From Candidatus Latescibacterota bacterium (lineage in GTDB: Bacteria > Latescibacterota > UBA2968 > UBA8231): DNA of 64,000 bases. Of the stretch, positions 16,399-20,656 are shown in pieces. The notes under the pieces are model-generated. The model worked only from the letters and a program-made list of their open reading frames with translations. It had not been told where the DNA came from and ran no database searches. Every line of letters starts with the position of its first letter. Within the stretch, counting starts at the first letter, position 1. Both the position numbers and the translations under genes were made by a program. The stretch lies in NCBI GenBank assembly GCA_965200315.1, contig OZ241362.1, forward strand, positions 448,001 through 512,000. Reading direction: 5' to 3'.

Positions 16399-17508
16399 TC
16401 AGTCCTTTTTAGGGGCCGAAGGCACAAAGGGCAGCTTGACCACCACGGCGAGTTGCCGCTTGCCCTTCATACCAATGTACACTTGAGTGCCTATTTTTTG
16501 TGCACCGCGCTGTAAATAGGCCAGCCCGATCCCCTGGCCGAGCACCGGAGAGTGCGTCCCACTGGTCACGGTACCCACCTGCTCCTCGCGCTGGTCGAAA
16601 ACTGGGTACTCCGGCCGCGGAATCCCCCTTTCCAGCATGCGGAAGCCACGCAGACGGCGATAGCCTCCGGCCGCTCGCTGCGCCCGCAGCGCCTCGGCAC
16701 CGACAAAATTTGCCTCTTTTTTTAAATCCAAAGTCCAAGACAAACCCGCCTCTAAGGGAGTCGTCTGCTCGTTTAATTCGCGGCCATAGAGGCAAAACCC
16801 CATCTCGAGGCGCAAGGTGTCGCGCGCGCCTAGCCCGCAAGGCTGAGCACCGGCTGCGCGAAATTTGGCCCACAGCGCAGCGACTTGGTCGGCCGGGCAT
16901 ATAATCTCAAACCCGTCTTCTCCGGTGTAACCATTGCGGCTGAGCAAGGCTCGTATCCCGGCGATCTCCATGGCCGCGCAGCGATAGTAGCCCAGCACCA
17001 CGCTAGCCGGTCCAGCGAGTGCTTCGACTAGGGCAGCGGCCTGCGGCCCCTGCACCGCCACCATGCCCTTTTCATCGCTCAAGTCCTCGATTTGCACACC
17101 CGACCACCCCGCTGCACACGCGGTAATCCACTGCCAGTCAATGGCCTTCCGGCTCGCGTTGACCACCAAGAGATACTCCTGTTGTGCGAGCCGGTACACG
17201 ACCAGATCGTCCACGCATCCCCCCTGTTCATTGCACAGCGGCACGTAGAGCATCTGGCCGATGGTCAATTCGCGCACCCGCGCTGGCAAGAGGCTGTCGA
17301 GGAAGGCCAGCCCACGCTCCCCGGAAACGGCGATTCGGCCCATGTGCGATATGTCGAACAGCCCAACCGCTCGGCGCACCGCCCGGTGTTCGCTACGGAT
17401 GCCCTCAAACTGGACCGGCATTTCCCACCCGCCAAAGGGTGCCATGCGACCGCCTTCGGCGACGGCGACTTCATAAAGCGGCGTTCGCCGCAAGCACTCA
17501 TTGGTCAT
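16399..17508 (-). CDS. gcvT: Aminomethyltransferase (glycine cleavage T protein)
   Basis: [38 protein letters not shown]. Confidence 0.97.
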
Positions 17509-18148
17509 GGTTGCCTTTTCCCGGCGCGGCACTGACTAACTCGGCCCACAGTGCTTCCGCCTGCGCGGCGAGCGCGGTCAAGCCCTTGTTATTGTCGATG
17601 ACAAAGTCTGCGCGAGCCTTTTTTTCTTGTGGATCCATCTGGCGCACCAGCCGCTGCCTAATCTCGCACCCCGGCAAGCCGCTGCGCTGCTGCACCCTCG
17701 ACACGCACTGTTCCTCCTCAGCATCAACCACCACGATCCGGTCGAAGCTCGCCTCGTTTCCCCACTCGTATATCAGCGGCGCGTCAAATACCACGACTCC
17801 TCCAGCGGCTTTTTTTACAGCCTGCGCCAGCCGGTGCTCTATGGCCGCTGATAGTGGCGGCCGCATAATCGCCTCTAACCGCTGGCTCGCCTCGTCCGCC
17901 CCCAGGGCACGACGCCCCAACTCCCGGCGGTTCAAGCGTCCGTCTGGACCGAGCAGATCGCGGCCAAATGCCGCTTGTAGATTTTCTATCACCGCCGGGA
18001 TTGCCGCCACTTCGCGAGCCACTTCGTCGGCATTGACCCGCAGCGCACCCAACTCGGCAAGCATTTGCGCCAGTGTGGACTTGCCCGCCCCCATGCCGCC
18101 GGTGATGCCTACGAGCACACGTACCTGTGGCCCGCTAGGGCCAAGCAA
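17498..18148 (-). CDS. coaE: Dephospho-CoA kinase
   Basis: VGITGGMGAGKST, DAPLIYE, ADFVIDN; exact start uncertain. Confidence 0.92.
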   Translation of the reverse strand: MLGPSGPQVRVLVGITGGMGAGKSTLAQMLAELGALRVNADEVAREVAAIPAVIENLQAAFGRDLLGPDGRLNRRELGRRALGADEASQRLEAIMRPPLSAAIEHRLAQAVKKAAGGVVVFDAPLIYEWGNEASFDRIVVVDAEEEQCVSRVQQRSGLPGCEIRQRLVRQMDPQEKKARADFVIDNNKGLTALAAQAEALWAELVSAAPGKGNHDQ

Positions 18149-18400
18149 CAGAACTCAAAAAATTGTACCACTGTGCCTTACAGAGAGTTAAGGGACTGAC
18201 CTTCGGTGGGCAACGACGTGCTGCGAACAAAATAAAATGTACCGCGCCGCCCCAGCGCGGTCAACCAACCTGAAAGGTCCCATGAAGGAACGCTCAAGGG
18301 GGCTGCCGCACTTAGCATGGGCGAACGGATCGTGTATTTTCTCATAGAAATTACATTGACGCGGTTCAACATGTTGACGACCTTTCTTTGTGTAGAATCG

Positions 18401-18730
18401 CTCTTTGACAAGAGAATAGGTTGGCGGTTCCAGCGCCGAATTCGTGCGCTGGGTAAAACCTGTTGCGCGATCAACCGAAAGGGTGTGAACAAGGCTGCAA
18501 GAGCCGGTTCCAAACATCGCAAGGCCGTAACAGCTAGCGGTGCGGTTGTCGCTACTAAAGTCTCGGCTTCGGCGGTATATCGAGCCTGTCGAGATGTCGA
18601 GCAACAAGGCCTGGTGCGGGCCTTCAGGTATCAACGTAGAGGTAGTCGCCTCAAGCGTGGCCTGAGAAGCGGTCGTCTTTAGGCGACGGTAGTTCACTGA
18701 CACTATATTGGGCATCGCCTATAGTCCATT
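18401..18730 (+). ncRNA. Candidate structured non-coding RNA / long clpP leader, family not recognised
   Basis: Nearly continuous series of stems, including a three-way junction, with many G-U pairs that work on the + strand (see findings). Confidence 0.4.
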
Positions 18731-18770
18731 GACCCGTTAATAGGCTCTCTTCTCACAACCAGAATAGCAC

Positions 18771-19376
18771 ATGGCCATCGTACCTGTAGTAATCGAACAG
18801 ACCGGCCGCGGCGAGCGCGCCTACGACATTTTCTCTCGCCTCCTCAAGGAGCGGATCATCTTTATCAGCACTCCGATCGACGACCACGAAGCCAACCTCG
18901 TCATCGCCCAGTTGCTCTTCCTCACCTCAGAAGATCCCCAAAAAGACATCTCGCTCTACATCAACAGCCCCGGCGGCAGCCTCACGGCCGGCTTGGCCAT
19001 CTACGACACCATGAAGTACGTTCCCTGCGACGTAGCAACGCTCTGCATCGGTCAAGCGTACAGCATGAGCGCCATTCTTCTCGCCGGTGGAACCAAAGGC
19101 AAGCGCCACGCCCTTGCCCATTCTCGGCTCATGCTGCACCAGCCTTGGGGCGGCGTCCGCGGCCAAGCGGCTGACATCGAAATCCACGCCCGCGAAATCG
19201 TCGAGTGGCGCGACCGGCTCAACCAAATTTTAGTCCAAGATACCGGTCAGCCACTCGAGCGCATCGAGCTAGTCACCGAGCGCGATTACTTTCTGTCGCC
19301 GGCCGAGGCGATCGATTTCGGCCTAATCGACGGGCTGCTAGCGTCCGCAAAAGAGCTAGCAGCCCTCGCTGACTAA
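18771..19376 (+). CDS. clpP: ATP-dependent Clp protease proteolytic subunit
   Basis: [28 protein letters not shown] (catalytic Ser), MLHQP. Confidence 0.97.
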
Positions 19377-20656
19377 TGCCCCGGCGGAAAGGCAATCACC
19401 TCGTCTAAGCAAGACGCGCCGGCAACGATCACAACCAGCCGATCCAACCCCAAGGCCACGCCACCAGCCGGTGGAATGCCTCGTTCCATAGCCGTGAGAA
19501 ACGCCTCGTCGGCCGGTGCCTGCCCCAGTCGCACACCCCGTGCAAAGCGCTCGCGCTGTTGGGCTGGATCGTTTAACTCGGTATAGCCGTTTGATAGCTC
19601 CACTCCCCCCAAGTACGCCTCCGTCCTCTCGGCTACTGTCGGATTGCCTTCTCTTAGCTTGGCCAATGCGGCTAGCTGCCAAGGATAATCGAAAAGGTGG
19701 ACAGTTCCTAGTTTGGCTAGCTCTGGTTCGACTTTTTCCAGCAGGATCTTGTGGAATAGATCTTCCCAACTATCCCCTCGTCTAGCGCTGTCATAGCCCA
19801 GAGCATGAGCGCGGCGAAAAAGCGACTCCGCGTCTGTACAGGCATCCAAATCAATGTCGGCCCAGCGCGCAAAAGCATCGCGGACGCGGACCCGCTCCCA
19901 CGGCGGCTGCAGGCCGATCGCGCGTCCTGCTCGGACCACGCTCGACCGCCCCAAAACGCTTTTCGCAACATGCGACACCAAATTCTCGACATCGGCCATG
20001 ATTTCTTCGTAACTAGCGTACGCCCGATACCATTCGATTAGGGTAAACTCGGGATTGTGTTGCGGTCCTATCTCCCCGTTGCGGTACGAGCGGCCAATCT
20101 GGTAAATCCGCTCAAAGCCCACCCCTAGCAATCGCTTCATGTATAGCTCGGGAGAGGGGGCCAGATAAAGCTGTTCTTGCGCCTTGTCGCCTTGGTATTC
20201 TGTGGCGAATAACTGGATGTGCTCCTCTTGCGCCGAGGCGCGGGCCAACGTGGGCGTCTCCACCGCGAGAAAGCTTGCATCCTTGAAAAAACCGCGTACA
20301 GCGTCTAACACTGCGGCCCGCACTCGCATGTTCTCCCACAGTCCATTGGCGTGGAATCGCGCCCAATCTCCTTGGTCCCAATCCGCTCGACTAGAAGCTA
20401 ACAAACGAATTTGAGTAACATCTATAACTCCTTCTGCAACAATCCCATATAACTCTACTATATCCCCGGCTTTTATCTCTTCTACCCGCGTCTTCACGCC
20501 GAAATCAATCTCCCCGCTCTCGTCTGCGATTCTCCCCTGCCCTTCGGCGAAGTGGAGGAGCCGCCCCCGCACAGCCACTTCCCCGACTGCGGTCGCCGCG
20601 GTGGCCGCAGGCTGGTGCCGCCACAACACCCGCGCTGGATAATGCCTAGCGTACAT
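19373..20656 (-). CDS. epmA: EF-P lysine aminoacylase (EpmA/GenX) with an N-terminal OB-fold-like extension
   Basis: [45 protein letters not shown]. Confidence 0.8.

Follow-up and report, generated by a model that had tools for sequence, protein, structure and literature searches.

A gene-less IS200/IS605-family insertion carrying a predicted standalone TnpB guide RNA upstream of clpP in a Latescibacterota genome

Between the coaE and clpP genes of a Candidatus Latescibacterota bacterium lies a sequence that folds extensively, and the question it raises is whether this is an RNA in its own right, a leader that controls clpP, or something else. The window analyzed is a stretch of 64,000 nt of contig OZ241362.1, and all positions refer to it unless stated otherwise. 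The original prediction, made from the letters of the window, described an unrecognized structured RNA of ~320 nt at 18401–18730 and proposed either a new class of non-coding RNA or a complex regulatory leader of clpP. The genome concerned (G000) is a single contig of 5.36 Mb. The gap of ~620 bp in which the RNA was placed is real: by gene calls and Pfam, coaE is on the minus strand at 17498–18148 (CoaE, E 3e-42) and clpP is on the plus strand at 18771–19376 (CLP_protease, E 1.6e-77), with 622 bp between them.

An insertion between coaE and clpP

Window positions 18150–18770 were used to query 60 related genomes. In 25 of 30 congeners, positions 1–134 and 546–621 of this query abut, with a gap of 0–16 nt as read from the match table, and the remaining five congeners show no match to 18150–18770 whatever. 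The sequence between these flanks in the window is missing from all 25 of these congeners. Thus ~414 bp (18284–18697, plus strand) are found only in G000 among the genomes compared. Parts of this insert match other loci in other genomes, as well as one second locus in G000.

The empty sites of the congeners read ...CCCAT|TGACACTATATTGGG... and constitute a clpP promoter of the form TTGACA-17-TATAGT. MAFFT misaligned the empty sites across the large gap, and the junction was therefore read by eye. In the filled site the insert sits exactly between CCCAT and TGACAC, so that the −35 hexamer of clpP is altered in its first base, from TTGACA to CTGACA; the resulting promoter-like site, CTGACA-17-TATAGT, is detected by a promoter scan at 18697–18725 on the plus strand. 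The ACTATA/TATAGT stem, which had been counted as part of the RNA, falls outside the element and belongs to the clpP promoter that congeners keep in the absence of the insert.

Comparison of filled and empty sites reveals no target-site duplication, and the insert lacks terminal inverted repeats. Directly 5′ of the insert is the motif CCAT (18280–18283, plus strand), which overlaps the −35 box of the clpP promoter. Among related elements, CCAT is found 5′ of the element at 13 of 14 recognizable left-end junctions, both tnpB-bearing (L047, L052, L055, L063, L065, L049 and L032/L030 of genome G029) and ORF-less (the window copy, the second copy in G000, L038, L043, L072 and L074); L076 is the exception. 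Elements with the right end ...GTCAA seem to have another target motif. As judged from this comparison of sites, the element inserted directly 3′ of CCAT without target duplication, and the locus offers a clean pair of filled and empty sites for defining the CCAT target motif.

The left part of the insert (18284–18355, plus strand) appears to be the remnant of a transposon left end, with the blocks AGGAAC...AAGGGGG...GGATCG that are common to tnpB-bearing and ORF-less left ends, among them L028 and L030/L032. On reading of the printed sequences, the canonical left-end hairpin of the relatives is missing from the window copy. Downstream of the remnant is a TTGACGCGG box with a promoter-like stretch (18356–18399, plus strand); the box is also present in the left end of L028, just upstream of tnpB, and in the ORF-less L010. 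The TAGAAT box of the original prediction is found in this stretch, at 18393–18398. A sigma-70 scan gave no consensus promoter upstream of 18400. Candidate promoters of the window copy would be TTGACG at 18356 with 17 nt to GACCTT, or TAGAAT at 18393, neither of which was returned by the sigma-70 scan.

The spacer between coaE and the insertion site (18150–18283, ~134 bp) has 69–91% identity in the 25 congeners, which is high for spacer DNA. On its minus strand are a terminator-like hairpin (18261–18241) followed by a T run, two promoter-like sites from the promoter scan, and a sub-threshold match to suhB/mmgR (17 bits, E 0.75). A leader of coaE or a small RNA may be encoded in this spacer.

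Two RNA modules in the insert

The structured nature of the sequence, as first proposed, holds up. The plus strand of 18401–18730 has a minimum free energy of −126.6 kcal/mol (z −2.71), and none of 100 shuffles folds as well; the minus strand folds more weakly (z −1.92, with three of 100 shuffles as good). The earlier argument that G-U pairs favor the plus strand is borne out by U-G pairs conserved in 22 of 23 and 19 of 20 sequences in the covariation tests of the two modules described below (R1 and R2). Thus the plus strand is the structured strand.

The expectation that no known RNA family would match was also correct, and the window has no Rfam match at gathering score except for three tRNAs elsewhere. 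With E ≤10, a search of 18100–18800 gave two chance-level matches, one to suhB (17 bits against a threshold of 41, minus strand) and one to a trypanosomatid snoRNA. Known riboswitches, HEARO/IscB RNA, group I and II introns and the IStron are ruled out as far as Rfam sees them. A coding reading of the overlapping ORFs (121 and 175 aa) was rejected, as they belong to no Pfam family and the substitutions are compensatory for RNA pairing, and a tblastn search with TnpB found nothing in the window copy. A structured plus-strand element of RNA type, with neither an Rfam match nor a coding signal, is what stands of the original prediction.

The last part of the insert (18608–18697, plus strand, ending ...GTAGTTCAC) is a module found in relatives. 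A covariance model of this 3′ module (R1), built from eight copies, gives the window copy 91.5 bits; across the 76 genomes of the family it detects 21 copies, distributed over 13 genomes. By tblastn with TnpB, 13 of these copies overlap a full-length tnpB at its 3′ end and three adjoin a tnpB that is frameshifted or truncated; the other five have no ORF (the window copy, L045, L053, L057 and L046, the second copy in G000). At L028 of genome G006 and L030 of genome G029, the last ~95 nt are preceded and overlapped by an ORF of 384–385 aa that is TnpB by its Pfam domains (OrfB_IS605, Cas12f1-like_TNB and HTH_OrfB_IS605), and at L030 a tnpA of the IS200 type (Y1_Tnp by Pfam) is just upstream of tnpB. 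The homology between the tnpB-linked RNA and the window copy is clear over the last ~90–100 nt only.

By homology, the 3′ part of the window element therefore belongs to an RNA module that overlaps the tnpB 3′ end in IS200/IS605-family relatives, and the proposal that the whole is a new class of non-coding RNA has to be given up. In ISDra2, the reRNA is described as coming from the tnpB 3′ end and the right end, with the last ~16 nt taken from flanking DNA and serving as the guide (PMC8612924). Since the 3′ module occupies the position of the ISDra2 TnpB guide RNA, the 3′ part of the window element is read as an omegaRNA/reRNA, with the scaffold core and right end at 18608–18697. A guide segment is predicted in the flanking DNA past the right end (18698–18713, plus strand), by position and analogy with ISDra2. 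The predicted 16-mer guide has no second target in G000 at ≤2 mismatches.

Upstream of the 3′ module is a variable middle region (18472–18607, plus strand), which the short forms L023 and L024 lack. Part of it is derived from the 3′ coding part of tnpB, as indicated by a sequence match: AAGGCTGcAAGAGCCGG corresponds to the ...YKAERAG... codons of tnpB in L028 and L030. The middle region also holds a 24-nt stretch unique to the window copy.

The first 72 nt of the structured region (18400–18471, plus strand; 94 bits with model R2) form a 5′ domain of two nested helices, with an invariant 5′ end of the GCTCTTTGACA type and a GTAAAA bulge. R2 detects one copy in each of nine of the 76 genomes of the family. 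In the class as a whole there are 20 copies in 15 of 132 genomes, five of them in G038, two in G101 and one in each other genome; no copy was found in 36 genomes from ten further families of the phylum. All 20 copies are in ORF-less elements, with no overlap between any of them and a tnpB ORF. When R2 was run with filters off on tnpB-bearing loci, only chance-level matches of E ~1 were obtained, confined to one closely related subgroup and to a single position immediately 5′ of the tnpB start; they are a lead rather than a result. The copies of the 5′ domain are at differing loci even within one genus, and in several of them a clear promoter, TTGACA-17-TATAnT, is found ~10–14 nt upstream of the domain.

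The covariation anticipated across homologs is strong in both modules. In the 3′ module (24 copies), 93.0% of cells pair and both sides have changed in 19 of 29 pairs; the covariation score is 0.416 versus 0.140 in shuffles, none of 500 shuffles reaches the observed value, and pairing is 33–38% when partners are slid. In the 5′ domain (20 copies), 93.9% of cells pair, both sides have changed in 13 of 15 pairs, and the score is 0.572 versus 0.195 in shuffles, again with none of 500 reaching the observed value. These figures are inflated, since the copies are related to one another and were aligned by fitting them to the models; the same compensatory changes are present in both modules in MAFFT/RNAalifold alignments made before the models.

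The individual stems first drawn for the RNA are of mixed standing. Compensatory changes in homologs are displayed by the stem AATAGGTT 18415/AACCTGTT 18457, which encloses CCAGCGC/GCGCTGG, and by AAGGCCT/GGGCCTT, which is helix 1 of the 3′ module; the GGCT/AGCC hairpin has one compensatory change. GTCGCCT 18645/AGGCGAC 18681 is a real inverted repeat in the window copy but is not kept by homologs, and covariation favors over it a local hairpin, CGGTCGTC/GGCGACGG (18673–18692), together with a helix CAGG...CCTG. The right-end hairpin is present in the window copy and covaries (helix 4). The stem GTCTCGGC/GTCGAGAT is within the 24-nt stretch unique to the window copy, where homologs have a simple hairpin. 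The helix thought to close a three-way junction reads as TTGCG/CGCAA in four long copies and is invariant, and the RNAalifold consensus pairs differently. A further closing helix for the 5′ domain, between its first seven bases and an AAGAGC-type box ~77–87 nt downstream, was considered and rejected: at least six of seven pairs form in 17 of 19 copies, single copies do no better than shuffles, and the changes are of the wobble type only.

Downstream of the 5′ domain the sequence varies between copies and resembles the 3′ ends of different tnpB lineages. When 16 ORF-less RNAs with the 5′ domain were compared with 11 sampled tnpB 3′ regions, a significant match was obtained for 11 of the RNAs. 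The closest, with 93.9% over 115 nt, is in G101, to a 413-aa tnpB that this genome itself carries; others are 77–90% to a 417-aa tnpB in G038 and 72–77% to the 385-aa tnpB of G122. The five ORF-less RNAs that match none of the sampled tnpB regions are the two mini forms, of G030 and G067, and the RNAs of G014, G122 (L070) and G053. Thus one 5′ cassette has been joined to at least four scaffold lineages.

Several arrangements of the 5′ domain are of note. In G023, G001 and G019 (L040, L041 and L044) the 5′ domain stands by itself, its hairpin loop is expanded, and in all three species it occupies the same position upstream of a gene that reads in translation as an HD-domain gene. A mini form in G067 (L042) consists of the 5′ domain and the right-end tip and is upstream of an apparent dnaA, so named from its translation, and another mini form of the 5′ domain RNA, of 113 nt, is present in G030 (L043). 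In G048 (L027, 400–1570) a 379-aa tnpB element and an ORF-less 5′ domain RNA are convergent, ~600 bp apart, and have in common the terminal hairpin and a ...GTCAC end.

Of the 13 loci from a pattern scan of genome contigs for the 5′ domain, two have bit scores identical to those of G028 and G021 and are true members, eight score 7–21 bits with R2, and three have no R2 match at E ≤1. Both loci from a pattern scan of metagenome contigs score 15 bits with R2; these two (L100 and L101) are an identical sequence of ~50 nt, the first 12 bases of which are those of the 5′ domain. L083 and L086, from Acidobacteriota MAGs, score 15.1–15.3 bits with R2. The matches at L083, L086, L100 and L101 may be due to chance or may represent a distant relative of the 5′ domain.

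Assembled contigs from four RNA-labelled runs of one study cover the region. The longest records are 9–66 kb, and DNA carry-over is therefore likely. One run has a contig that extends from exactly 18400 to 19663 (depth 17.3) and a further contig that terminates at 18379 (depth 9.0). Contig breaks in another run are at 18420/18424 and 18756/18800. Contigs cannot show the ends of an RNA, and with DNA carry-over likely these data hint only weakly that an RNA might start near 18400 and that transcription might read through into clpP. One RNA-labelled run has A instead of G at window position 18565, inside the stretch unique to the window copy, and coaE and clpP differ at another five to six single bases, which points to strain variants in these runs.

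The state of tnpB and the reading of the element

G000 was searched for genes that could serve the element. A TnpB protein search gave only a 40-aa piece with a stop, PF07282 gave a single 49-aa fragment with a decayed right end beside it, and PF01385 gave no match. Neither an intact TldR-like nor an intact TnpB-like gene was detected. The two pieces correspond to decayed tnpB remnants, one at G000:C1:3452038-3452157 (L033; the 40-aa piece) and the other at G000:C1:73244-73336 (L034; a 49-aa zinc-ribbon fragment followed by a short hairpin like that of a right end). TnpB elements were thus once present in the G000 lineage.

No canonical tnpA was found in G000, where the sole Y1_Tnp match is inside an ORF of 1228 aa. 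This ORF (G000:C1:705399-709085; L091 1900–5586) has an N-terminal DUF1156 and a weak match to a D12 methyltransferase, and the IS200-like Y1_Tnp is internal, at residues 581–656 (37.5 bits), which is an unusual place for an HUH/Y1 domain. The second ORF-less copy of the element family in G000 is at G000:C1:391296-391387 (L021/L046). This copy retains the left-end hairpin intact, with CCAT at its junction, is without the first ~60 nt of the 5′ domain, and ends ~30 nt before a Na/sulfate symporter gene that has the same orientation. TnpB-type matches are present in 12 of the 14 genomes other than G000 in which the 5′ domain occurs, and none was detected in G030 and G067. An intact tnpB is thus lacking from three of the 15 genomes that have the domain, namely G030 and G067, with none detected, and G000, with a fragment only.

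We put at roughly 85% the probability that 18284–18697 is a gene-less IS200/IS605 (tnpB-type) derivative that carries a predicted standalone TnpB guide RNA and is a stranded orphan in G000. Homology and structure show that a standalone omegaRNA/reRNA is encoded, and the RNA itself is predicted, with a scaffold that would extend from ~18400 to 18697 and a guide that would consist of the flanking bases from 18698. By analogy with ISDra2, for which this mode of action is established, such a guide RNA would be bound by TnpB supplied in trans, the complex would cut the emptied donor site (CCAT plus flank), and repair would copy the element back. As there is no tnpB mRNA to process, the lineage would have its own promoter and the conserved 72-nt 5′ domain, which would define or stabilize the 5′ end of the RNA. 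The left-end hairpin of the window copy looks deleted.

With no intact tnpB in G000, and with the sole Y1_Tnp inside the 1228-aa ORF, the proposed mechanism cannot operate there now. The lack of an intact tnpB and of a canonical tnpA makes the window RNA an orphan in that genome, and the element is most likely stranded. The remaining effects in G000 would be the one-base change in the clpP −35 box and possibly read-through into clpP. With this reading a false lead is removed, as the sequence is a mobile-element RNA that Rfam does not cover and not a new regulatory RNA of clpP.

Other explanations should also be considered. The RNAs with the 5′ domain could be domesticated or independent guide-like RNA genes with a role free of TnpB, either in regulation of the downstream gene or with another protein. 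The single copy per genome in 13 of 15 genomes, the strong covariation of the 5′ domain across four families and its presence in the three genomes without an intact tnpB agree with such a role, as do the three species that have the domain alone upstream of the HD-domain gene. Of the four copies with the 3′ module that were examined in the genus, three are also closely followed by a gene of the same orientation; however, the G021 copy faces the 3′ end of its neighboring gene. Moreover, copies are at differing loci within a genus and have transposon ends and CCAT junctions, the scaffolds track resident tnpB lineages, and no further target of the guide predicted for the window copy is present in G000. 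We regard this explanation as unlikely.

It is less likely still that the pairing acts only in single-stranded DNA, as recognition hairpins for a transposase, with no functional RNA. IS200/IS605 transposases are described as recognizing hairpins on one DNA strand (10.1101/2023.03.14.532601), and the terminal hairpin of the 3′ module is the right-end palindrome and resembles the left-end hairpin of related copies. However the helices span ~160 nt, far past subterminal palindromes, the 3′ module in tnpB-bearing copies is at the known position of the reRNA (PMC8612924), and clear promoters are found just upstream of the 5′ domain in members of the family. The least probable of the three is the cis-acting clpP leader of the original prediction: the insert does end 73 nt upstream of clpP on the same strand and one RNA-labelled contig spans 18400 through clpP to 19663, but the insert is missing from all 25 congeners that share the junction, their clpP promoter is directly at the empty site, and the same RNA family adjoins unrelated genes elsewhere.

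The reading as a gene-less derivative with a standalone guide RNA can be extended to the 5′ domain in general. Tentatively, and with less conviction than doubt, the domain may mark an undescribed group of guide-RNA-only transposons that have their own promoter, have repeatedly captured the scaffolds of resident TnpB lineages and are hyperparasites on TnpB and TnpA supplied in trans, with a hint of a second, TnpB-independent use. If this were so, the domain would replace guide RNA biogenesis that depends on tnpB mRNA, by defining the 5′ end, by stabilization or by loading, and the single, well-folded copies in TnpB-less genomes would hint at the second use. Should the 5′ domain control the making or stability of a guide RNA without a tnpB transcript, this would bear on how gene-less elements exploit RNA-guided nucleases, and also on short guide-RNA cassettes for TnpB editors.

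Comparison with known systems

The insertion in the window is like miniature inverted repeat transposable elements (MITEs) in that it is short, gene-less and dispersed. A MITE of the terminal inverted repeat type was rejected, as the ends of the insert are not inverted repeats and there is no target-site duplication. TldR guide RNAs are reported to be TnpB-derived, to function outside the transposon life cycle and to act on promoters (10.1101/2023.11.30.569447). Unlike these, the window RNA has no detected TldR- or TnpB-like gene in its genome, its guide would be the adjacent flank with no other target, and transposon ends and a CCAT junction are retained.

IStron-derived PATEs are described as ORF-less IS605 units with a structured RNA on the 5′ side and an omegaRNA on the 3′ side (10.1101/2023.11.20.567912). 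The window unit is likewise an ORF-less member of the IS605 family with this order of structured RNA and omegaRNA. It differs in that there is no group I intron match over 18100–18800 (E ≤10), the 5′ domain is 72 nt, and the insertion is intergenic.

With the ISDra2-type omegaRNA the window element has in common a structured RNA at the right end, which overlaps the tnpB 3′ end in its autonomous relatives, and a scaffold that ends at the element boundary, so that the guide would be flanking DNA. As in ISDra2-type elements, it is located 3′ of a short target motif, without duplication. In contrast to ISDra2, the window copy has no tnpB and G000 has no intact tnpB, the scaffold is ~300 nt rather than ~150 nt, and the scaffold begins with a 72-nt domain that is absent from tnpB-bearing copies. 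The motif also differs from that of the ISDra2 type, being CCAT in the window family as opposed to TTGAT or TTAC, and no Rfam family matches the window RNA.

The closest likeness in organization is to units described as PATE-like. ORF-less PATE-like IS605 elements are reported often to encode omegaRNAs that need TnpB in trans (10.1101/2023.03.14.532601), and standalone omegaRNAs are reported to be mobilized and trans-acting, with a role that is unknown (PMC10691335). The window unit is similarly ORF-less, has IS605-type ends, has evidently been mobilized and would need TnpB in trans. Unlike these elements, it has no effector left in G000, and the copy number of the 5′ domain is one in most genomes. 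It also differs from them, as far as the accessible parts of these reports describe them, in that its lineage has a promoter region of its own and that one 5′ domain is common to RNAs with scaffolds from several tnpB lineages. The accessible literature on standalone omegaRNAs makes no mention of a conserved 5′ domain or of a cassette with its own promoter. The element itself is of a known kind, a gene-less IS200/IS605 derivative with a standalone TnpB guide RNA; the 72-nt 5′ domain is the only part for which that literature offers no described counterpart, and it looks like a new variant.
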